Positions 21,791 through 47,256 of a DNA stretch of 64,000 nt are shown here, in pieces. The notes beneath the pieces were generated by a model, which searched no databases, had not been told where the DNA came from, and was given only the letters and a program-made list of their open reading frames with translations. How positions within the stretch are numbered: the first letter of the stretch is position 1; each line of letters begins with the position of its first letter. Origin of the DNA: Escherichia virus TH41. The DNA is taken from the sequence record MT446412.1. The stretch is one strand, 5' to 3'. The translations under genes were made by a program, and so were the position numbers.

Positions 21791-23214
21791 AAACTATTTT
21801 ATCCCAGCTACTCTTTAACAAGGAATATTTTGTTAAAGTCTGGCCATATCTGAATAACACATATTTTGAAAAGGGTCCAGCAAAGACCCTTTTTAATACG
21901 ATTAACGAACACGTAAAAGAATATCAAGCGGTACCAACTAAGACTGCACTTGATATCGCGCTCGACAGTTCTGACCTTTCTGAAGTCGAATATGAAGGCA
22001 CAAAGAAACTCTTAGGAGTCCTGGCCGATACTCCAGAAGACCAGGAATGGTTGGTTAAAGAAACCGAGAAGTATGTACAGAAGTCTGCGATGTTCAATGC
22101 CACATCCAGGATTATCGAAATCCAGAGCAATGCCGAACTTCCGAAAGATAAACGTGATAAACGAATCCCGGATATTGGTGCTATCCCTGACATCATGCGC
22201 GATGCATTGTCTATCTGTTTTGACTCTGCTCTGGGCCATGACTGGTTAAACGATTACGAAGCTCGATTCCAGACTTATCTGAACAAATCGAAGAAGGTTC
22301 CGTTCCGTATTAACATCCTGAATAAAATCACGAAGGGCGGGGTTGAGTACGGTACAGAGAACGTTTTACTGGCCGGGACGAACGTCGGCAAATCCCTTGG
22401 ACTTTGTTCGCTGGCGGCTGACTATCTTCAGACTGGTCATAATGTGCTTTATATAAGCATGGAAATGGCTGAAGAAGTATGTGCCAAACGTATTGATGCC
22501 AACTTGCTGGATGTGTCTCTGGATGATATTGATGAAGGTCATGTGTCATGGGCGGAATACAAAAGTAAGATGGAAAAATGGCGTGCAGCCGGGACCCTTG
22601 GGACTCTGAAGATAAAACAATATCCAACTGGCGGTGCTCATGCGGATACCTTCCGTGCATTGCTGAATGAATACAAACTGAAGCAAGGGTTTGTGCCGGA
22701 TGTGATTATTGTTGACTACCTGGCAATCTGTGCAAGCTCAAGACTGAAAACGTTTACCGAAAACAGTTACGGCCTGATTAAGATGGTTGCAGAAGAACTT
22801 CGTGGTCTGGCGGTCGAGAAAAATGTGGTCCTGTGGACTGCAGCGCAGACAACCAGGGGTGCGAACGTTGCAGCTGAGATTGATATGGCTGACATCGCTG
22901 AATCTTTTGGTATTGCTCACACGGCCGACTTTATGTTGGGTGTTGTTGAGACCGAAGAATTCGCTCAAATGGGACTACAGTTAATCAAACAGCTTAAGTC
23001 TCGTTACGGCGATAAGAACTACTATAATAAATTCAAGATGGGTGTTAAGAAAGGTAATCAGCGCTGGTACGAGGTTGATGATGATTCAGCTCCTAAACAA
23101 GGCCCTACGGTTAAAGAAGCCACTGGTGAGATGAATCGCCAGGCTGAAATGAATAGACAAACCAGGGTCAACAGGAGCGACCTGGACGACCTTGCTGCTC
23201 AAATGAAATTCTAA
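21784..23214 (+). CDS. 41: Replicative DNA helicase gp41 (DnaB-like)
   Basis: GTG start giving MVETILSQLLF (T4: MVEIILSHLIF); Walker A GTNVGKSLG; near-identical blocks to T4 gp41. Confidence 0.93.
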   Translation: MVETILSQLLFNKEYFVKVWPYLNNTYFEKGPAKTLFNTINEHVKEYQAVPTKTALDIALDSSDLSEVEYEGTKKLLGVLADTPEDQEWLVKETEKYVQKSAMFNATSRIIEIQSNAELPKDKRDKRIPDIGAIPDIMRDALSICFDSALGHDWLNDYEARFQTYLNKSKKVPFRINILNKITKGGVEYGTENVLLAGTNVGKSLGLCSLAADYLQTGHNVLYISMEMAEEVCAKRIDANLLDVSLDDIDEGHVSWAEYKSKMEKWRAAGTLGTLKIKQYPTGGAHADTFRALLNEYKLKQGFVPDVIIVDYLAICASSRLKTFTENSYGLIKMVAEELRGLAVEKNVVLWTAAQTTRGANVAAEIDMADIAESFGIAHTADFMLGVVETEEFAQMGLQLIKQLKSRYGDKNYYNKFKMGVKKGNQRWYEVDDDSAPKQGPTVKEATGEMNRQAEMNRQTRVNRSDLDDLAAQMKF

Positions 23215-23233
23215 AGACCTTCGGGTCTTTTTC
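23213..23233 (+). terminator. Rho-independent terminator (AAGACC-TTCG-GGTCTT + T-run)
   Basis: UUCG hairpin followed by TTTTTC directly after gp41 stop. Confidence 0.7.
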
Positions 23234-23241
23234 ATTTAGAG

Positions 23242-23274
23242 GTTTACAACACCATAAAAAGGGTGTACTATTAT
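23242..23274 (+). promoter_or_regulatory. Degenerate early promoter (GTTTAC ... TATTAT) with conserved leader
   Basis: Spacer about 21 nt (long); followed by TATCCCATCAACTACTGATGAGGATAATAAA-ATG 23303. Confidence 0.35.
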
Positions 23275-23302
23275 CCCATCAACTACTGATGAGGATAATA
23301 AA

Positions 23303-23551
23303 ATGTTATTAGTTAATGTGCAGTACCAGTTCAAATCTGAAGAAGCTCTCCAAAAGTATGCTGATATTTGTGAGCATAATAAAAGAACAGCTGCCATTGT
23401 TGGTCTGAAGCCTTTTAAAATTTTGGATTGCTCCTTGAACAGAGCAAGACGCTGGTGTAGTGTTGCCTGTCATGCTTCAGTTGAAGGGAATGATTATTTT
23501 TTCATTACTTTCAATGCACAAGATTTTCATTTAATTAATGAATTAAAATAG
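23303..23551 (+). CDS. Hypothetical protein (82 aa)
   Basis: ATG after conserved leader with GAGGA. Confidence 0.55.
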   Translation: MLLVNVQYQFKSEEALQKYADICEHNKRTAAIVGLKPFKILDCSLNRARRWCSVACHASVEGNDYFFITFNAQDFHLINELK

Positions 23552-31065: not shown

Positions 31066-31121
31066 TTTACTTACTCCCCTCCTAATGACATAATGGTCTT
31101 TCTTACAACAGAGAGGCCATT

Positions 31122-31682
31122 ATGAACATCATCAAATCTGATACCGAACCCAACCAGTTAAAATTTAATGAAATGGAGATAGCTTCATTATTTGAATGCC
31201 GCGCATCAAAGGTTGATAAGACCTTACATTCAAACATCAACTCAATCATCAAGTCAAGGTTGTCTATACCTGATACAGTCTTGTATCGTGGGGTAACCCA
31301 GCAAGAGATTGATTTGTTAGATGAAGCAAAAGAATCAATGCAACCTTTTGAATTTGGAAGGATAACCTCCTTTACAGAAGACTATGGTATTGCCAGGGAT
31401 TTTGCTGCAATGGAATATGTGTCAAGGACTATCATCAGATTGAATCATACAAAAGCTTTTTGTTATCATGATGCGATGCGCAAAATCGCGCTTGACGTTC
31501 CACTGGAATTCTTCAATACAGCCTCTGGTTCCGAACAGGCAGCAACGTTAAGGCGTGAAGAATACATGGACATGATTGATTCTGAGCTTGAATGGTTTGT
31601 TCCAGTTGACCAGAAATTCGTGATAGTTGATGCTGGATTTGTTGATGATTATTATGTTCTTGACTGTGTACAAGAGCAATAA
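31122..31682 (+). CDS. modA: ADP-ribosyltransferase, ModA-like
   Basis: 186 aa; R-S-E triad candidates LYRG, ITSFTED, ELEWFVP; adjacent paralog; syntenic with T4 modA/modB. Confidence 0.6.
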   Translation: MNIIKSDTEPNQLKFNEMEIASLFECRASKVDKTLHSNINSIIKSRLSIPDTVLYRGVTQQEIDLLDEAKESMQPFEFGRITSFTEDYGIARDFAAMEYVSRTIIRLNHTKAFCYHDAMRKIALDVPLEFFNTASGSEQAATLRREEYMDMIDSELEWFVPVDQKFVIVDAGFVDDYYVLDCVQEQ

Positions 31683-32400: not shown

Positions 32401-32429
32401 GTGTACACACCCAATGGATGGTGTATAAT
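32401..32429 (+). promoter_or_regulatory. Early promoter GTGTAC-N17-TATAAT
   Basis: Preceded by AAAAGTA; followed by GAATCCATACTGAGTT block; ATG 32477. Confidence 0.6.
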
Positions 32430-35803: not shown

Positions 35804-35833
35804 GTGTACAAGGCCAATGGAAAGAGACATAAT
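35804..35833 (+). promoter_or_regulatory. Early promoter GTGTAC-N18-CATAAT
   Basis: Preceded by AAAAAGTA; leader CATCTCATCAACTACTGATGAGGATAACAAA; ATG 35865. Confidence 0.6.
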
Positions 35834-35864
35834 CATCTCATCAACTACTGATGAGGATAACAAA

Positions 35865-36122
35865 ATGATTACTTCTTTTGAAATTGGCCAACAATATGAA
35901 ATGTCTGCTTTTCAAGCTGCTGAAGCAGGTCTGACTGAAGCGTTTGAATGTGCATTTACAAATATTCGTGGTAAAATCTTTACTGTCAATAAAATTGCGG
36001 TATATGATAAAGAAACAGACATGAACAAAGGCATCTACTTGAACGTGTCAAACGCAAAAGGCCGTCGTGAAATTATGGTTGTACAACCTAACCAACTGGC
36101 GATGTTCAATAAGGTTACATAA
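35865..36122 (+). CDS. Hypothetical protein (85 aa)
   Basis: ATG after conserved leader; in frame with track ORF 35817..36122. Confidence 0.5.
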   Translation: MITSFEIGQQYEMSAFQAAEAGLTEAFECAFTNIRGKIFTVNKIAVYDKETDMNKGIYLNVSNAKGRREIMVVQPNQLAMFNKVT

Positions 36123-36881: not shown

Positions 36882-36911
36882 GTGTACAAACTCGTGGGGC
36901 CAGAGTATAAT
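36882..36911 (+). promoter_or_regulatory. Early promoter GTGTAC-N18-TATAAT with -10 inside inverted repeat GTGGGGCC/GGTCCCAC
   Basis: Read directly; ATG 36954. Confidence 0.6.
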
Positions 36912-40878: not shown

Positions 40879-41031
40879 ATGAAAAAGTGGTGGGTTACGT
40901 TGTCAAATGGCGAATACGGTTATCTGTGGGCCGATACTAAACCCCTGTTTGCATCCTTTGTCACCATTATGTGCGAGACCTGGGATGGTGAATACTATAC
41001 CGCGTATGGGCAAGTCTATAAAGTTGAGTAG
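40879..41031 (+). CDS. Hypothetical protein (50 aa)
   Basis: ATG preceded by AGGAGAAG; followed by terminator; under track cutoff. Confidence 0.4.
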   Translation: MKKWWVTLSNGEYGYLWADTKPLFASFVTIMCETWDGEYYTAYGQVYKVE

Positions 41032-41033
41032 CC

Positions 41034-41057
41034 AAAAGGACCTTCGGGTCCTTTTTT
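41034..41057 (+). terminator. Rho-independent terminator (GGACC-TTCG-GGTCC + T6)
   Basis: UUCG hairpin plus TTTTTT. Confidence 0.75.
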
Positions 41058-41060
41058 ATT

Positions 41061-41090
41061 ATGTACAAGCCATAAAAATTGCGTTAAGAT
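41061..41090 (+). promoter_or_regulatory. Early promoter ATGTAC-N18-TAAGAT
   Basis: Same architecture as GTGTAC family; ATG 41108 after GAGGTGAAAAT. Confidence 0.45.
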
Positions 41091-41107
41091 GTCCTTGAGG
41101 TGAAAAT

Positions 41108-41392
41108 ATGATTATGTCTGACGGAAGTTTAGTTAATCTACAGAATGTTGCTCGTTGTATTATGGAAGCAGGCCTGAGGAAGGTGCAGGAGCTCCCAGAT
41201 AGCGACAGGAAGCGAAGTTACTTGTTGGCTGTAAGAGCATCAGCCATGAGCATTAAGGCTGGCCAGAAGGTTCCTGAGGAGCGAATTGAAGCACTCCTTG
41301 CATTGATATACCATGGCCAAGAACATAAAGCTACCATGCGTAGTATGAGAAAAATATTACAGGAGATTGGAAATGACGAACTTCAAAGTTAA
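41108..41392 (+). CDS. Hypothetical protein (94 aa)
   Basis: ORF track. Confidence 0.5.
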   Translation: MIMSDGSLVNLQNVARCIMEAGLRKVQELPDSDRKRSYLLAVRASAMSIKAGQKVPEERIEALLALIYHGQEHKATMRSMRKILQEIGNDELQS

Positions 41393-41576
41393 TATGGAAC
41401 TGTTTGATAAGGCTATCCATAAAGAGTACCGTGTTATCCAACGATTTTTTGATATAAGAGAAGCTGAAGAGTTTAAAGAACGCTTCAAAGAAATCCGTAT
41501 TAAAATAGCTTCAGACACCGCAACAAAGGATGAACTTCTTGAAGTTGCAGAATTAATCAAACGTAACATAAAGTGA
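41370..41576 (+). CDS. Hypothetical protein (68 aa)
   Basis: ATG preceded by GGAG; track start 41367 is TTG. Confidence 0.45.
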   Translation, partial: EMTNFKVNMELFDKAIHKEYRVIQRFFDIREAEEFKERFKEIRIKIASDTATKDELLEVAELIKRNIK

Positions 41577-41583
41577 GAAAAAC

Positions 41584-43818
41584 ATGATTTTAGAAACTGA
41601 AAAGGAAACAATCCTTGGTAATGGTGCCAAGGCATCAGCATTCACAATCCAGGCATCTCCAAAGGTGTTTAAGATTCTGACCAGCGACCTTTATACAAAC
41701 AAGGTGCGTGCGGTTGTTCGTGAGCTGATTACCAATATGATTGATGCTCATATGCTCAATGGTTGTCAGGATAAATTCATTGTGCAAGCTCCTGGTGAAC
41801 TGGACCCACGTTTTGTATGCCGTGACTTTGGTCCGGGTATGAGTGATTTCCAGATTCGTGGTGATGAAAATACCCCAGGTCTGTATAACAGTTTCTTTGC
41901 ATCATCCAAGGCTGAATCCAACGATTTTATTGGCGGCTTTGGTCTGGGCTCTAAATCTCCGTTCAGTTATACAGAGACGTTTAGCCTGATTTCATATCAC
42001 GATGGTCAAGTTAATGGTTATGTCGCTTATATGGACGGCGATGGCCCACAGATTAAACCAACCTTTAGCGAACCAATGAAACCTGGTGACCGCACGGGGA
42101 TTGAAGTTGTTGTCCCGGTTGATAGTAATGATTTTGGTAAGTTCCGCTACGAGATTGCATATATCATGCGTCCATTTGCTGGACTGGCTGAAGTGCAAGG
42201 CGTAAGCGAAATTGAATACTTCCCGGAATTTGATGATTATTATGCTCCAGAGCGTATTAATTATAGCAGCCCAGAACGTTATGGTCTTTATGCAATTTAC
42301 GGTGGAATTGTTTATCCAATTGCCGACGGTTATACAAAGAAAACCTGGATGACTGCCAAAAACGATGTTGTCTTTATTAAGTTCCCGATGGGTTCGTTGG
42401 ATATTGCACCTTCTCGCGAAGCATTATCACTGGATAAACGTACGGTCGCAAATATCGTTGAACGTATTGAATCCCTTGATAAGAAAGTCATGGAAGATGA
42501 TTGTAAGAAATGGCAGGAATCAGAATGTATCCGCCACACGTATCGCGAATTACAGAGTCTGAGTTATGAAGCTCGTAATTTTCTGAAAGCTCGTAATGCT
42601 GAAACGAAATTTACGAAATCGCAATTGACCTTTAACCAGATGTATGAAATGTTCGAGCTGGACAAAGACCTTATTAATGCCGGGGTTGTCTATGATATCT
42701 ATAGCACTACCCGTCTGAAACGTCTGCGTAACTCAAGCTCGAACACGAATACTGCAAGTCTGACGAGCATGTTTGGTATTCAGAATAATACCTTGAACAT
42801 TGTTATTGACGATGCTAAAGGGCGAATTGCGATGATTCGTGGTATCAGTTCAATGCTATATGACACCAGCGCGAAAGCCAAAAAGCTCAAAGCATCTGGT
42901 AAAGTCCCGACTGTACAAGGTAGTAGTCTATTGTTCGTTGACCCAACCAGCGAAATTCAAACACGTCTGATGGTTCAACTTCAAGAACGATTTAAAGGCG
43001 ATACAGTTAATATCTATCGTACGTCTGAACTGACCGCCCTTGTAAAAGACTGGATTCCGGTTGCTGACCCGAAAGCGCGCGTTAAGTCAAAGACTCCATC
43101 ATTGATTCGTTGGACTAAAACTAATGGCAAATGGCAGTCTGTTGAAGAATTTACATGTGCAGCTGATGCAGAGGAAATCGATGGTTATGCTGTATTCATT
43201 AACCGCAGTAGCATTTCCCCGTTGAATCAAGAATATGGCACCACGACCTTCGGGACCCAGACATTGTGTAAACTGGCAAACCTGTTGGAAATCAATGAAT
43301 TCTGTGTTATTCGTCCACAGCTTCAGAAAAAGATTACCAAGCTGGCGCAGTGTGATTGTCTGATTGAAGCTGCAGTCAATCGTTATGTGGAATTGATTGA
43401 TGCGGTTGATGCGGACCAGTACATTGCCGCTTCAAGCCGTTCGCGTTATTATATTCCTATCCTGTCTGAATATGCAGAACTGAATTTTATGTTCAAGTAT
43501 TTTTATGCAAAAGATGTTCAGAAAGATGTGAATACTGACTATGCCGAATTAATGCAGTTCAATAAGTTCTTTGCTTATAACGCATATAACAGTGGAACAG
43601 TTGATAAGACCATGCAGGAAACTCTGGTCCTTTGTAATAAGATTTATGACGACCTGACCAAAAACGCTTCGGTAACAAGCGATAAAATGGTTTTTGAATT
43701 TGAAAAGAATCACCCGATTGTTTCACACTTTTTATATAACCGTAACGCCATGTCAACTGAACAAGTACAGAACGTTGCTCAAATCATGAAGGCCGTGGAA
43801 GCGGCCAATAAGGAATAA
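41584..43818 (+). CDS. rIIA: rIIA protein (membrane-associated, GHKL ATPase-like N-terminal domain)
   Basis: 744 aa; N-terminal HATPase-like motifs; follows gene 39 and precedes rIIB as in T4. Confidence 0.85.
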   Translation: MILETEKETILGNGAKASAFTIQASPKVFKILTSDLYTNKVRAVVRELITNMIDAHMLNGCQDKFIVQAPGELDPRFVCRDFGPGMSDFQIRGDENTPGLYNSFFASSKAESNDFIGGFGLGSKSPFSYTETFSLISYHDGQVNGYVAYMDGDGPQIKPTFSEPMKPGDRTGIEVVVPVDSNDFGKFRYEIAYIMRPFAGLAEVQGVSEIEYFPEFDDYYAPERINYSSPERYGLYAIYGGIVYPIADGYTKKTWMTAKNDVVFIKFPMGSLDIAPSREALSLDKRTVANIVERIESLDKKVMEDDCKKWQESECIRHTYRELQSLSYEARNFLKARNAETKFTKSQLTFNQMYEMFELDKDLINAGVVYDIYSTTRLKRLRNSSSNTNTASLTSMFGIQNNTLNIVIDDAKGRIAMIRGISSMLYDTSAKAKKLKASGKVPTVQGSSLLFVDPTSEIQTRLMVQLQERFKGDTVNIYRTSELTALVKDWIPVADPKARVKSKTPSLIRWTKTNGKWQSVEEFTCAADAEEIDGYAVFINRSSISPLNQEYGTTTFGTQTLCKLANLLEINEFCVIRPQLQKKITKLAQCDCLIEAAVNRYVELIDAVDADQYIAASSRSRYYIPILSEYAELNFMFKYFYAKDVQKDVNTDYAELMQFNKFFAYNAYNSGTVDKTMQETLVLCNKIYDDLTKNASVTSDKMVFEFEKNHPIVSHFLYNRNAMSTEQVQNVAQIMKAVEAANKE

Positions 43819-43819
43819 T

Positions 43820-44794
43820 ATGTTTAATATCAAATGTATGTCTAAAGCCGAACAAGCTGATGTGGTCCAGATGTATTCAACGGGCAATTATACCCAGCCT
43901 GAATTGGCAGAATATTTTGCTGTGTCCGTTGACACCATTCGTCGCGTTTTGAAAAATGATAAAGAATCAAAATTAGCTAAAACCATTTCTGCATCACTGA
44001 AAGCCGCTGTCGGGGTGGCGATTAATGCTCCGGTGACAGTAACGGTTGAAGTCCCGGTTGTTGAAGATACAATCGGCGGTAGCCGTCCAGAAATCGTATG
44101 GAACGCCTCAAGCAAATTCGTTTCCATCACTGAAGGTCGTACAGTCTGGAACGCAACAAAAGACCATAAACACTTTGATGATATTATTCAGGCACTCAAA
44201 GAATCTCGTTTTGATGATGCTATCGAGTTTATCTCAATCAAAGCTGCAGTACAAAAATATGTGAAAGGTGATGTGCGTATTGAAGGTGGTAGTTTGTTCT
44301 ATCAGGGAATTGAACTGCGCTCTGGCCTGGTTACTCGTATCATTGATTCAATGCAAAATGGCGAAGACTTTGAATTCTATCTACCGTTCCTTGAGAATCT
44401 CCTTGAGAACCCGAGTGAGAAAGCCGTACAGCGTTTGTTTGACTTCCTGGTTGCGAACGATATCGAAATCACCGAAGACGGCCATTTCATCGCATGGAAA
44501 ATGGTTCGTGCAACTTACAAAGATTGTCACTCAAACACATTCGACAACAGCCCTGGTCAATATGTTAAAATGCCGCGCTCTCGTGTGAATGATAATGACG
44601 AACAGACCTGTTCAACCGGGTTGCATGTTTGCTCTAAAGGCTATATCGGAAGTGGTTTTGGTCATGGTGATGGACGCATCGTATCCTGTAAAGTTCACCC
44701 GCGTGATGTTGTAAGTATCCCGGTTGATTATAACGATTCCAAAATGCGGGTCTGTGGTTACCTGGTTCTTGATGATGTAACTGAACAATTCTAA
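43820..44794 (+). CDS. rIIB: rIIB protein
   Basis: 324 aa; N-terminus MFNIKCMSKAEQADVVQMYSTGNYTQPELAEYFAVSVDTIRRVLKN matches remembered T4 rIIB. Confidence 0.85.
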   Translation: MFNIKCMSKAEQADVVQMYSTGNYTQPELAEYFAVSVDTIRRVLKNDKESKLAKTISASLKAAVGVAINAPVTVTVEVPVVEDTIGGSRPEIVWNASSKFVSITEGRTVWNATKDHKHFDDIIQALKESRFDDAIEFISIKAAVQKYVKGDVRIEGGSLFYQGIELRSGLVTRIIDSMQNGEDFEFYLPFLENLLENPSEKAVQRLFDFLVANDIEITEDGHFIAWKMVRATYKDCHSNTFDNSPGQYVKMPRSRVNDNDEQTCSTGLHVCSKGYIGSGFGHGDGRIVSCKVHPRDVVSIPVDYNDSKMRVCGYLVLDDVTEQF

Positions 44795-44801
44795 ATTAAT
44801 C

Positions 44802-44815
44802 GGGGCTTCGGCCCC
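44802..44815 (+). promoter_or_regulatory. UUCG-tetraloop hairpin (GGGGC-TTCG-GCCCC), no U-tract
   Basis: Identical hairpin sequence to 14136-14149. Confidence 0.55.
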
Positions 44816-44827
44816 TAATGAGGCTTT

Positions 44828-45025
44828 ATGTTAGGTTTCCAAGCACGTGTAGTTGAAGAACATGACCAGCTGGTTTTGAAAATCAATGCTCTTGAAGAAT
44901 TTATTAAGGGCGGTGTTTTTGAAACTCTCGATGCTCGTCAACAAGGTCTTTTGATTGCCCAGTTAGATGCGATGGGCGCATATGCTCATATTCTGGCAAC
45001 TCGTATCTCTTATTTTGGTGAATAA
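44828..45025 (+). CDS. Hypothetical protein (65 aa)
   Basis: ATG preceded by GAGG. Confidence 0.5.
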   Translation: MLGFQARVVEEHDQLVLKINALEEFIKGGVFETLDARQQGLLIAQLDAMGAYAHILATRISYFGE

Positions 45026-45028
45026 ATT

Positions 45029-45349
45029 ATGATTAACTATATGAACGTTGGCGATGAATCTATTAATGAAATTCGGTTGCATGGTAATCATGTTGCGGAT
45101 ATTGTTTATTGTGTTGATTGTCATTATGCTTCTACAAAGTCAACTGGCCGGTTATATGCGAGAGACATCATTCTTGCAACGAAAGAAGAACTTCGTAGTC
45201 TGGACCATTCTACTCTAGCCGAAAGTGCCAGAATTTATTATGGCGTCGTTCATGTAGACAAAGTTTATATTGGCAGTGATTATCAAGAGCAAGCTGAGCA
45301 AAATTCTTTGGATATTGTCGAAAAATCCGATATGTATTTTAAAGGATGA
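45029..45349 (+). CDS. Hypothetical protein (106 aa)
   Basis: ORF track. Confidence 0.5.
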   Translation: MINYMNVGDESINEIRLHGNHVADIVYCVDCHYASTKSTGRLYARDIILATKEELRSLDHSTLAESARIYYGVVHVDKVYIGSDYQEQAEQNSLDIVEKSDMYFKG

Positions 45350-45353
45350 GCTG

Positions 45354-45947
45354 ATGATTCAGAAGAGTAAAACATGGGAGCATCTGAAAAAGATGCCCTC
45401 CTTTCTTTATACAAAGGAAGACTTAACCCCCGAATCCCTGCAAAAGATTGTAGATACAGCCAGGTATTCATTGCGTAAAGACCCGGGTCAGGACCGTGAG
45501 CAAGTCATGCAAAGATGTATGGTGGCTACAATGGCTGAACAAGCTATTGCTAAATGGACTTCAGGTTTTTTATGTGGCGGTGATGAAGATTACGATAATC
45601 CTTATTCCTTTGCATTTGATGTAGTTTCGAAGGAAGGGGTAAGAATCGAAGTCAAGACTCATCAGTCTGGTTCCAAATGGATATCCGTACATACTGGTCA
45701 CCAGGGTGATTATCCACATGGTTACGGGGTTAATCTTGGCCCTTTTATGCAGCACAAGCTTGCTGACCTTATGATTATGTTTAATGTAAAAGAGACTCTC
45801 AAAGGTTATAGATTTAAACCAAAATTCCTTGCTGGGCCTGGTGCTTTCGTTCCTGAGTCTGGTCTTGTGCAGAAATCACAAGGGGATGGCTGGTACCTCC
45901 GTTCTTGTTCAGAAGAAAAATTTCCCTATCACCGGTTTACAAGCTGA
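45354..45947 (+). CDS. Hypothetical protein (197 aa); size and position compatible with T4 denB
   Basis: ATG preceded by GGATGAG; no sequence-level recognition. Confidence 0.5.
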   Translation: MIQKSKTWEHLKKMPSFLYTKEDLTPESLQKIVDTARYSLRKDPGQDREQVMQRCMVATMAEQAIAKWTSGFLCGGDEDYDNPYSFAFDVVSKEGVRIEVKTHQSGSKWISVHTGHQGDYPHGYGVNLGPFMQHKLADLMIMFNVKETLKGYRFKPKFLAGPGAFVPESGLVQKSQGDGWYLRSCSEEKFPYHRFTS

Positions 45948-45964
45948 ACCAACTGTGTAATAAT
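45935..45964 (+). promoter_or_regulatory. Early promoter GTTTAC-N17-TAATAAT
   Basis: Inside 3' end of previous ORF; followed by RBS-containing hairpin. Confidence 0.4.
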
Positions 45965-45991
45965 GTCCTCATACCAACAAATGAGGACATT
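45962..45991 (+). promoter_or_regulatory. Perfect 11-bp stem-loop (AATGTCCTCAT/ATGAGGACATT) with the SD GAGGA in its 3' arm
   Basis: Read directly; ATG 45995 is 3 nt after the stem. Confidence 0.6.
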
Positions 45992-45994
45992 ATC

Positions 45995-46270
45995 ATGGAA
46001 CACGTTACTACTCACAACATCAAACAAATTCTTATCCAAGCACTCAAAAACAACAACATCAATTTTCCAACCCATGAAATTTTTGATGTAGCATTCAACG
46101 AAGTCCAGGGTCAAGTTGCATATTATGACGTTATCGTTTATCTTTCAGAATTTGAAGTCTACCACCTGACTGAAATTGCTTTCTATCTCTATCGTGGGAC
46201 TGCAGATTTTACTGGGGTCGTGAATGCAGTTGGCGCATATAAAGAAGTTAAAGAACAAATGCACAATTAA
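45995..46270 (+). CDS. Hypothetical protein (91 aa)
   Basis: ATG in frame within track ORF 45905..46270. Confidence 0.5.
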   Translation: MEHVTTHNIKQILIQALKNNNINFPTHEIFDVAFNEVQGQVAYYDVIVYLSEFEVYHLTEIAFYLYRGTADFTGVVNAVGAYKEVKEQMHN

Positions 46271-46280
46271 TTAAAAAGTA

Positions 46281-46310
46281 GTGTACATCAGTATGGAGTC
46301 TATGTATAAT
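46281..46310 (+). promoter_or_regulatory. Early promoter GTGTAC-N18-TATAAT
   Basis: Preceded by AAAAAGTA; followed by GATTCCATACTGAGTTACC; ATG 46345. Confidence 0.6.
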
Positions 46311-46344
46311 GATTCCATACTGAGTTACCAAACTGGAGAATAAA

Positions 46345-46500
46345 ATGAAACCTGCTCAATATGCAATGACTTTATACCTTGAAGTTAATGGCGATATTAC
46401 TGAATTTTTTAAATTAATGCAACAGCGCGGAAAAAGTTTTGCAGTTACTGAGCGTCAATTTTACGCTTGCCGTAAAAATACATACAATCGTTATGCGTGA
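46345..46500 (+). CDS. Hypothetical protein (51 aa)
   Basis: ATG after promoter and GGAGAATAAA; under track cutoff. Confidence 0.4.
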   Translation: MKPAQYAMTLYLEVNGDITEFFKLMQQRGKSFAVTERQFYACRKNTYNRYA

Positions 46501-46510
46501 GGAAAACAGA

Positions 46511-46777
46511 ATGGATATTAAATTATACTACGCCAAACACAAAGTTACAGGTATGGTTGTTGCTGCTATGTATGATGCGTCAGGTGATGGTGATGATATT
46601 ACTACAGAATTGTCTCTTTCTGAATGTAAATTTCTTCGCCCGCTAGTTGCCTCAAAGCGTGATTTAAAAAAGCTTATTGATGGAAAACTGGATAATGTTG
46701 ATGGCATAGATATTCTTTATGACCTTCGCACCGCATTGCACAGGGGTCTGATTGAAATAAAAGAGGTGATATTTTGA
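46511..46777 (+). CDS. Hypothetical protein (88 aa)
   Basis: ATG preceded by GAGGAAAACAGA; track start 46439 is upstream. Confidence 0.5.
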   Translation: MDIKLYYAKHKVTGMVVAAMYDASGDGDDITTELSLSECKFLRPLVASKRDLKKLIDGKLDNVDGIDILYDLRTALHRGLIEIKEVIF

Positions 46778-46867
46778 GCAGCAAAACCTGGTGTCTTATC
46801 TGGATGTTGTGTATCCCAGTAATTTGCGTTTGTTTTAGTTTATTATTAATGAAACTTGCATAAAAGA

Positions 46868-46896
46868 GTGTACATCTCCGGTGGTTGTAGTATAAT
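46868..46896 (+). promoter_or_regulatory. Early promoter GTGTAC-N17-TATAAT
   Basis: Leader CTATCAACTACTGGAGATGATT; ATG 46923. Confidence 0.55.
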
Positions 46897-46922
46897 GAAC
46901 CTATCAACTACTGGAGATGATT

Positions 46923-47039
46923 ATGAAAAAGTTACTTAAAGCCATTTGGAACATGTTTGTACTGTTTGTTGTCCTGAGCATTTTCCCAATTGTTTTTATG
47001 ATTGACCATGTACGCGTTTACTTTAACTATTTCTTTTGA
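46923..47039 (+). CDS. Hypothetical small membrane peptide (38 aa)
   Basis: Follows promoter and GGAG; hydrophobic; very short. Confidence 0.3.
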   Translation: MKKLLKAIWNMFVLFVVLSIFPIVFMIDHVRVYFNYFF

Positions 47040-47049
47040 GGATAATATT

Positions 47050-47256
47050 ATGAATTACAATTCACAATTTCAGAAATCTAATCGTCGCTTTGACTTTATG
47101 TTCAAGTTTATTGTGGCAATGATTATCCTGATTTTCATTGGTGCCATTGCAATGATTGGTTTCCAGCTCTGGATTGCTGCTGAAGTGTTCACACAAATCC
47201 AGGATAATGGTTTGAAGTCTGTTGTTGATGTAATTTGGAATGGTGCTAAGCAATGA
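47050..47256 (+). CDS. Hypothetical membrane protein (68 aa)
   Basis: ATG preceded by GAGGATAATATT; hydrophobic core. Confidence 0.45.
   Translation: MNYNSQFQKSNRRFDFMFKFIVAMIILIFIGAIAMIGFQLWIAAEVFTQIQDNGLKSVVDVIWNGAKQ

Follow-up and report, generated by a model that had tools for sequence, protein, structure and literature searches.

The window analysed here is a stretch of 64,000 nucleotides (nt) from Escherichia virus TH41 (sequence record MT446412.1), a T4-type coliphage of the genus Gaprivervirus; it belongs to the VR7/VR26/SP18 group and is 95-98% identical to many isolates. In its hyperplastic region between rIIB and gene 52, denB is followed on the plus strand by an ORFan, an open reading frame (ORF) of 91 amino acids (aa), and between the two genes lies a compact element (45935-45997, reading GGTTTACAAGCTGAACCAACTGTGTAATAATGTCCTCATACCAACAAATGAGGACATTATCATG) in which an early-type promoter, a long hairpin and the ribosome-binding site (RBS) of the ORFan are interlocked. 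We describe this element (the 45936 cassette) and weigh what its hairpin may do; the coordinates of the features are compiled in Table 1.

A preliminary description of this DNA had reported a perfect 11-bp stem, and such a stem is indeed present, with AATGTCCTCAT (45962-45972) pairing with ATGAGGACATT (45981-45991) around an 8-nt loop (45973-45980). The Shine-Dalgarno sequence (SD) GAGGA (45983-45987), which precedes the ATG at 45995-45997, was also rightly placed in the 3' arm. The stem is longer than described, comprising 13 perfect pairs (45960-45972 with 45981-45993), and across a 2-nt bulge it is continued by an outer 5-bp helix (45953-45957 with 45994-45998) that pairs the AUG as well, giving a total helix of about 18 bp. 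The main stem is AT-rich, with G-C at 4/13 pairs. It is the sole perfect hairpin of at least 10 bp in the window when loops of 3-12 nt are searched, and first-order Markov sequences give by chance a mean of 0.27 stems of at least 11 bp and 0 stems of at least 13 bp. The RNA folds at -20.2 kcal/mol (z = -4.2), with 0/200 dinucleotide shuffles as stable, and the single-stranded DNA form also folds (-12.4 kcal/mol, z = -4.2).

The promoter scan identified a promoter-like site that agrees with the Escherichia coli consensus at 10/12 positions and has a TGn in addition (TTTACA at 45936-45941, a 17-nt spacer, then TGt and AATAAT). T4 early promoters have been described as UP/-35/TGn/-10 promoters (PMC2988021), and TGTGTAATAAT (45954-45964) is in register with the T4 early -10 motif TGTG(A/G)TA(C/T)(A/T)AT of a T4 preprint based on differential RNA sequencing. 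The preliminary description had the promoter followed by the hairpin, which is inaccurate, as the -10 box (45959-45964) is itself part of the 5' arm. The predicted transcription start (+1) at 45971 falls 2 nt before the end of this arm, and the promoter's own transcript would keep 2/13 arm bases; a start inside the 5' arm is also the situation in which, according to the preliminary description, the hairpin could not form. With the -10 inside the 5' arm and the +1 at about 45971, the RNA made from this promoter would thus lack the 5' arm and be unable to form the hairpin, and the hairpin could therefore act only on RNA reading through from denB. In straddling the predicted +1, the structure is unlike leader RNA, which lies downstream of the transcript start. 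On the opposite strand, another promoter-like site (46017-45989, minus strand, TTGTGA-17-GATAAT, 9/12) has a -10 that mirrors the 3' arm of the palindrome; it would be antisense to denB and is probably nonfunctional.

The nearest strong early-type promoter upstream on the plus strand is at 36883, about 9 kb away. No late TATAAATA motif was present in 41000-47000 on the plus strand, and in 41000-46000 the scan gave neither the middle motif (TGCTT-N12-15-TAnnnT, a strict pattern that weak MotA boxes could escape) nor any further motif of an early, middle or late promoter. No canonical terminator occurred within 120 nt upstream of 4/5 cassettes of the SD-occluding type introduced below (class B), the 45936 cassette among them. 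Considering that neither a canonical terminator nor a strong early-type promoter is near upstream, RNA coming from denB would be delayed-early or middle RNA. The extension of early transcripts continues after the early promoters have been shut off (PMC2988021), and read-through from denB is plausible.

The consequence for the ribosome site was calculated as the difference (ddG) between the energies needed to open the initiation region in read-through RNA and in RNA from the predicted +1. The computed opening cost is 19.9 kcal/mol in read-through RNA and 3.9 kcal/mol in RNA from the +1, with a pairing probability of the SD of 1.0 in the former and of 0.48 in the latter, where a weak alternative of -2.6 kcal/mol is available. 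These opening energies held when the +1 was moved within 45969-45973 and when the read-through RNA was taken to begin 60 or 150 nt upstream. The short RNA, taken as its 40-nt leader plus start region, folds at -2.0 kcal/mol (z = 0.44), no better than its shuffles. As a positive control, the identical calculation for T4 gene e gave a ddG of 11.3-13.9 kcal/mol, as compared to 16 for the 45936 cassette. The long early RNAs of gene e sequester the initiation region, lowering lysozyme synthesis about 100-fold, and the RNAs from its late promoter lack the 5' strand of the hairpin (PMC3014915). The translational attenuator suggested in the preliminary description is thus sustained in one respect, as the stem buries the SD and the outer helix the AUG as well, but not in the other, as RNA of the cassette's own promoter, starting at about 45971, would be unable to form the stem. 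Any RNA with both arms should, by this prediction, be translated very poorly.

The plus strand of the window carries more than 12 promoter/stem-loop cassettes. We scanned this strand for T4-type early promoters, 13 of which were testable in having a recognisable downstream SD and start, and compared RNA from each predicted +1 with RNA from 60 nt further upstream, using dinucleotide-shuffled upstream segments as the control. The outcome was bimodal. At 5/13 promoters (class B) the SD is occluded in the longer RNA, with a ddG of 10.0-16.2 kcal/mol, z of 3.8-6.1 and leaders of 20-25 nt, while the remaining 8/13 are without occlusion (ddG -1.2 to 2.7) and have a stem that merely flanks the -10 box. 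The arm sequences vary among the class-B cassettes, each being complementary to its own SD. Applying the same test to T4 placed 5/24 testable early-type promoters in class B, namely those of motB.2, denV, regB, nrdC.8 and ndd.4 (ddG 10-19 kcal/mol, z 4.6-8.1), with the promoter before e.8 being borderline (ddG 8.6, z 2.9). The regB promoter is an experimentally established early promoter, so that at least one class-B promoter is experimentally real. As in the 45936 cassette, the anti-SD of these five T4 units lies upstream of the predicted +1 and pairs with the SD only in read-through RNA; in T4, however, it is situated in the -35/-10 spacer, whereas in the 45936 cassette and its near twin at 31066 it overlaps the -10 box and the discriminator. 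The ndd.4 cassettes of both phages occlude the SD with unlike arm pairs, GTTCTTCC with GGAGGAAC in T4 and CATCTCC with GGAGATG in TH41.

Several cassettes have features of their own. A canonical terminator (23214-23233, AAAGACC-TTCG-GGTCTTT followed by TTCATTT) stands directly before the 23243 cassette, which unites terminator, spacer stem and SD-occluding stem. In the class-A-type cassettes at 32402, 36883, 46282, 47499 and 47911 (plus strand), a 7-13-bp stem with the loop GAGUAUAA or a longer one brackets the -10 box; these stems are present only in read-through RNA and leave the SD untouched. In T4 (NC_000866), no SD precedes the annotated ndd.4 start (166764). GGAGGAACAGAAA stands before another ATG of the same frame, 15 nt further downstream (166749), and ndd.4 as annotated may thus include 5 codons too many. 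The T4 cassette downstream of denB (minus strand, between denB and ndd.6) contains a strong SD-ATG, GGAGAATAAAATG, which opens a mini-ORF of only 8 codons; the stop of this mini-ORF and the start of ndd.6 overlap (ATGA).

Table 1. Features of the 45936 cassette, its surroundings and the class-B cassettes (positions in the window, except for the last line; ddG in kcal/mol)
Feature	Position	Strand	Remarks
rIIA	41584-43818	+	
rIIB	43820-44794	+	
denB.1-like ORF, then DUF7418 ORF	between rIIB and denB	+	
denB	45354-45947	+	TGA stop inside the -35/-10 spacer
A/T tract AAAAATTT	45916-45923	+	about -55 to -48, inside the denB coding sequence; UP-element-like, with a presumed function
Small 6-bp stem-loop GGUUUA-CAAGC-UGAACC	45934-45950	+	overlaps the -35 box and the denB stop codon; weak, from fold prediction only
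-35 hexamer TTTACA	45936-45941	+	in the final denB codons; matches the T4/PST PeSL consensus TTTACW (PMC4122927); invariant in 12 relatives
Last 3 nt of denB	45945-45947	+	from the denB annotation in relatives
Outer helix, 5' strand CUGUG (CCAUG in some relatives)	45953-45957	+	pairs with CAUGG over the start codon
Extended -10, TG-t-AATAAT	45956-45964	+	hexamer at 45959-45964
Main stem, 5' arm AUAAUGUCCUCAU	45960-45972	+	5/6 bases of the -10 hexamer and anti-SD CCUC
Predicted transcription start, A	45971	+	7 nt after the -10, C at -1; expected from sigma-70 geometry
Loop ACCAACAA, 8 nt	45973-45980	+	
Main stem, 3' arm AUGAGGACAUUAU	45981-45993	+	holds SD GAGGA, 45983-45987; invariant in 12 relatives
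Outer helix, 3' strand CAUGG	45994-45998	+	includes the start codon, 45995-45997
91-aa ORFan, VR7 gp288-like	45995-46270	+	gene behind the cassette
Next PeSL cassette, class A	46282-46347	+	13-bp stem around the -10; bounds the ORFan cassette on its 3' side
Small ndd-region ORFs in series	after the 91-aa ORF, up to gene 52	+	
Class-B cassette	23243-23305	+	before goF-like gene (mRNA modulator); ddG 10.0, z 3.8
Class-B cassette, near twin of 45936, cATAATGGTCTTTCT-TACAAC-AGAGAGGCCATTATg	31066-31124	+	before ModA/ModB-like ADP-ribosyltransferase gene; ddG 16.2, z 6.1
Class-B cassette	35805-35867	+	before 85-aa ORF; ddG 15.0, z 4.0
Class-B cassette	45936	+	before the 91-aa ORFan; ddG 16
Class-B cassette	46869-46925	+	before ndd.4-like 38-aa ORF; anti-SD CATCTCC in the promoter spacer; ddG 13.9, z 6.0
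Predicted class-B starts in T4, NC_000866	about 8182 (motB.2), 53907 (nrdC.8), 62761 (regB), 65378 (denV), 166771 (ndd.4)	-	

The helix was compared among 12 sequences, 9 of them distinct. Three pairs vary on one side and always remain paired (U.G to C-G, G.U to A-U, and C-G to U.G); these include a TG/CA polymorphism in the outer helix by which U.G and G.U become C-G and A-U with pairing retained. Folding energies range from -17.7 to -21 kcal/mol over the alleles. Wider searches, covering IMG/VR and metagenomes, contributed one identical allele and one 20-mer match, the latter being an exact 20-nt match to GGTTTACAAGCTGAACCAAC in IMGVR_UViG_3300032215_000296 (2681-2700), which has unrelated flanks on both sides and is probably due to chance. 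Across seven paralogous or orthologous copies of the sister stems that flank the -10 box, 93.7% of the cells are paired, compared with 83.0 +/- 2.7% after shuffling (0/500 shuffles reach the observed value) and 33-49% with slid partners, and two-sided changes occur at three pairs. One 3' arm flanking a -10 box carries three substitutions in SP18, all of which preserve pairing via G.U or G-C. The use of G.U pairs favours a plus-strand RNA structure over a double-stranded DNA site.

Promoter-early stem-loop (PeSL) cassettes have been described from the hyperplastic regions of T4-type phages (Arbiol et al. 2010, PMC2839356; Comeau et al. 2014, PMC4122927). Their layout comprises an AT-rich tract with the stop codon of the upstream gene, a sigma-70 -35 and -10, a stable stem-loop in one of five positions, including one overlapping the -10, an SD and an ATG, and their authors propose a role as terminator or attenuator and as recombination sites shuffling ORFans (PMC2839356, PMC4122927). 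The T4/PST PeSL promoter consensus is TTTACW N17 TAYWAT, and the exchange of ndd.4/ndd.5 in the same genome region is among the published examples (PMC4122927). The 45936 cassette resembles these units in that a short intergenic stretch holds an early promoter of the sigma-70 type together with a stable stem-loop and an SD-ATG, and, as its stem starts at the second base of the -10 hexamer, it corresponds to the subclass overlapping the -10. It lies in a hyperplastic region, flanks an ORFan and has many counterparts in the same genome; its -35 fits the consensus, and its -10 is off by one position. On the other hand, the stem is AT-rich and not of the G(n)-loop-C(n) or AGNA-loop-TCNT type, its 3' arm is the SD itself and extends to the AUG, and the upstream stop codon is located between -35 and -10 instead of upstream of the -35, with the AAAAATTT tract at about -55 to -48. 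The PeSL papers cover termination and recombination, never translation; in the 2010 text, 'translat' and 'ribosome' occur 0 times each (PMC2839356).

The ORFan is flanked by two cassettes, the second of which, at 46282, is a junction of gene content among the relatives. The break is at the ATG, behind an identical promoter-stem-SD-ATG unit: a 51-aa ORF (46345-46500) follows in the window and in EAWsc9, another gene follows directly in VR7, SP18, ph212 and fDHCT2, and VR26 has a third gene there. A degraded cassette (TTTACG-17-TACAAT, 46460-46495), with a stem over the -35, sits within the terminal part of the 51-aa ORF. PeSLs had previously been described in RB49/phi1, T4/PST and KVP40/nt-1, and are not known to have been described in Gaprivervirus. 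Valerie et al. (1986) reportedly noted stem-loops before denV and neighbouring ORFs. In the accessible papers, our literature search found none that reads T4 early stems as translational insulation or states an early-promoter version of it.

A promoter inside an RBS-sequestering hairpin is known from T4 e, soc, 49 and I-TevI (PMC3014915). The 45936 cassette shares with gene e that a long read-through RNA would bury the SD and the AUG, that a promoter box resides in the 5' arm, and that the promoter-proximal RNA, lacking this arm, would be translated. The layouts are alike as well (AUAAAUACCUUC...GGAGGUAUUAU(G) in gene e and AUAAUGUCCUCAU...AUGAGGACAUUAU here), the promoter box being paired in both to the bases immediately 5' of the AUG, and the computed penalty is 11-14 kcal/mol there and 16 here. 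The internal promoter here is an early sigma-70 promoter and not a late gp55 TATAAATA one, and the timing would be inverted: translation would take place in the immediate-early period and be silenced in later read-through RNA, while gene e is silenced early and released late. The mechanism would thus be the same as in gene e, but not the regulatory class.

A role of the hairpin as terminator of the upstream gene, also put forward in the preliminary description, is not supported in the canonical sense. The hairpin is stable and lies 13 nt downstream of the denB TGA, as an intrinsic terminator might, but the stem is followed by CATGGAACACG, without a U-run, has the low G-C content given above, overlaps the promoter and RBS of the next gene and was not flagged by the terminator scan; an intrinsic terminator was therefore rejected. 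A search against Rfam gave no match at the gathering score in the whole window and none at E <= 1, and the sub-threshold matches in 45000-47200 were only to unrelated eukaryotic or sRNA models.

As to the gene behind the cassette, tblastn against a phage collection matched the 91-aa ORF only in 34 Gaprivervirus records, without deeper orthologues, and in a search of 5.8 billion proteins its product came out as one cluster at 90% identity. Pfam, NCBIfam and PDB gave no match for the protein, which does match phrog_17571, a PHROG without an assigned function; the labels 'MafI' and 'HNH' attached to it in two public records were not reproduced. A counterpart of the ORF is lacking in T4, where denB is followed by a single promoter cassette and ndd.6. 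In Escherichia phage fDHCT2 (496-780), the ORF, unannotated in the record, has a 16-nt deletion and a frameshift with a stop after 26 codons; this phage keeps the promoter and the hairpin, in which one C-to-U change gives a G.U pair. The 5' end of the ORFan (46001-46080, plus strand) is C-rich and G-poor (24 C, 3 G) and ranks second among the non-overlapping 80-nt windows of the plus strand for C over G, with 0.08% of windows as high. This composition is kept in the relatives (C 21-25, G 2-3) except in fDHCT2 (C 18, G 7), which has the deletion. It is speculative whether the tract serves as a Rho-loading site on untranslated read-through RNA; its composition could simply mirror the amino-acid content, and the tract, spotted post hoc in coding sequence, is not common to the other class-B genes. 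Further upstream, between rIIB and the denB.1-like ORF, a GGGGC-UUCG-GCCCC hairpin (44802-44815) with a very stable C(UUCG)G tetraloop has no U-tract on the plus strand; tetraloop hairpins are a known trait of T4 intercistronic regions (PMC1702504).

Considering the helix, the overlap of promoter and arm, the energetic contrast between the two RNAs and the recurrence of the design, all of which can be read directly from the DNA, we think it probable, though far from assured, that the ORFan is translated only from the cassette's own immediate-early transcripts and is kept silent by the cassette in RNA that reads through. From these features we infer an active promoter with its start at the position predicted, a read-through RNA and a block of its translation. 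E. coli RNA polymerase with sigma-70 would begin transcription at the 3' end of the 5' arm (about 45971), and the resulting immediate-early mRNA, having an unstructured leader of 24 nt and a free SD, would be translated. The delayed-early or middle RNA from denB would hold both arms, and its helix of about 18 bp and about -20 kcal/mol would bury the SD and the AUG, leaving the ORFan untranslated from this RNA. The net effect would be translational insulation, with output only from the gene's own early promoter in the first minutes before early shut-off. The logic would be that documented for T4 e, soc, 49 and I-TevI, except that the promoter in the 5' arm would be an early one of the sigma-70 type. 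In line with the proposal of the PeSL authors, the stem may in addition slow down or attenuate transcription that reads through, and in the 45936 cassette the translational block might expose the C-rich tract to Rho, by which insulation would become attenuation. More tentatively, a built-in 'translational insulator' may belong to a substantial fraction of T4-type early-promoter cassettes (5/13 here and 5/24 in T4, including regB and denV), with the anti-SD located in a part of the promoter that is never transcribed, be it the spacer, the -10 or the discriminator.

Several points weigh against this interpretation. The 34 phage records with the region are all at least 92.6% identical, which makes conservation uninformative; 14/18 helix pairs are invariant among the 12 sequences compared, with 0 two-sided compensatory changes, and the loop-closing pair is open in 7/9 distinct sequences. 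Promoter activity and the +1 are predicted, the consensus T at -12 is missing from the -10 hexamer AATAAT, a lack for which the TGn may or may not compensate, and read-through from denB is assumed. In the soc control the ddG was only 3.0, with a guessed late start site that is probably imprecise, and this indicates that the opening-energy method is sensitive to the assignment of the +1. Besides, the class-B cassette at 23243 directly follows a canonical terminator, where insulation is seemingly redundant, and the PeSL authors assign the stem-loops to transcription termination and recombination and not to translation.

This assignment leads to an explanation that we regard as unlikely but worth weighing, namely that the stem acts mainly on transcription, as a PeSL-type terminator or attenuator or as a 3'-end stabiliser of denB RNA, with the SD being incidental to the 3' arm. 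The PeSL authors give all such stem-loops a terminator/attenuator role and report for one RB49 PeSL stem-loop a drop in lacZ expression similar to that caused by the rrnB T1 terminator; denB is without any other terminator-like signal, and the class-A sister stems cannot affect translation, yet they are conserved with covariation. The stem of the 45936 cassette, however, is AT-rich and not of the G(n)-loop-C(n) type that was tested, and it has no U-tract. A bimodal ddG and exact complementarity to the own SD at ten promoters in two phages are also hard to call incidental. In a variant of this explanation, blocked translation leaves the start of the ORF, rich in C and poor in G, open to Rho, and polarity ends the read-through; the high C-over-G rank of that tract is in line with it, whereas the absence of such a tract from the other class-B genes, its coding nature and its post hoc discovery speak against it. 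An action on transcription is compatible with translational insulation and does not exclude it. The preliminary description, on the other hand, placed the hairpin in the leader of the gene's own transcript, where it would be a constitutive attenuator or a switch operated by temperature, a protein or the ribosome, and to this we attach hardly any probability. Any RNA with both arms does have its SD fully paired, and were the predicted promoter inactive, all RNA of the gene would come from upstream and carry the hairpin. But the sole promoter-like site has its -10 in the 5' arm, no other promoter motif is found in 41000-46000, transcripts from about 45971 would be without the stem, the overlap of promoter and arm recurs at other cassettes and at T4 gene e, and no Rfam family is matched.

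The palindrome might also work as DNA, either as an operator for a dimeric protein over -10 to +22 (with half-sites 21 bp apart, centre to centre), as a cruciform or single-stranded hairpin, or as a recombination site. A perfect 13-bp inverted repeat centred on the promoter start region and the stable fold of the single-stranded DNA would suit such roles, as would the proposal that PeSLs are recombination sites and the gene-content junction at the adjoining 46282 cassette; the mechanism of T4 early-promoter shut-off is not known. We nevertheless judge a DNA function to be very unlikely. The outer helix contains wobble pairs, and substitutions keep RNA pairing via G.U while breaking the symmetry of the DNA, as seen in the C-to-U change of fDHCT2, in the TG/CA polymorphism of the outer helix and in the three SP18 changes in the neighbouring stem. 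Class-B cassettes also lack a common arm sequence for one protein to recognise, and no sequence-specific repressor of early promoters is known in T4-type phages. Finally, the pairing could be without selected function, a by-product of cassette history, for instance of the duplication or inversion of a -10 segment, and be retained in a genus that is young and near-clonal. The near-identity of the 34 records leaves room for this, and the frameshifted ORF of fDHCT2 is still preceded by the hairpin; we give it only a very slim chance, since the stem is the only one of its kind in 64 kb, and the outcome is shared by four other cassettes of the window and by five of T4, whose arms are unrelated in sequence.

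PeSL cassettes and promoter-in-hairpin control are both already established, and the gain is in this sense incremental; the twist suggested here is the early sigma-70 promoter in the 5' arm, which would invert the timing logic. If translational insulation holds, the hairpin is an insulator and not a brake on the gene's own mRNA, the paradigm of T4 lysozyme extends from late to early promoters, and PeSL cassettes gain a translational function beyond their roles as promoter/terminator and in recombination. Middle-time RNA-seq coverage of such genes then need not mean protein synthesis, and engineers placing payloads in T4-type hyperplastic regions could exploit such cassettes or must avoid them. 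A post-transcriptional layer would restrict certain dose-sensitive early proteins, such as nucleases, ADP-ribosyltransferases and the 91-aa ORFan, to the first minutes of infection. Overall, a mobile ORFan cassette would be decoupled from incoming upstream transcription, with its output tied to the short life of its early promoter, and PeSL and ORFan together would constitute autonomous plug-and-play units whose expression is independent of the site at which they land.

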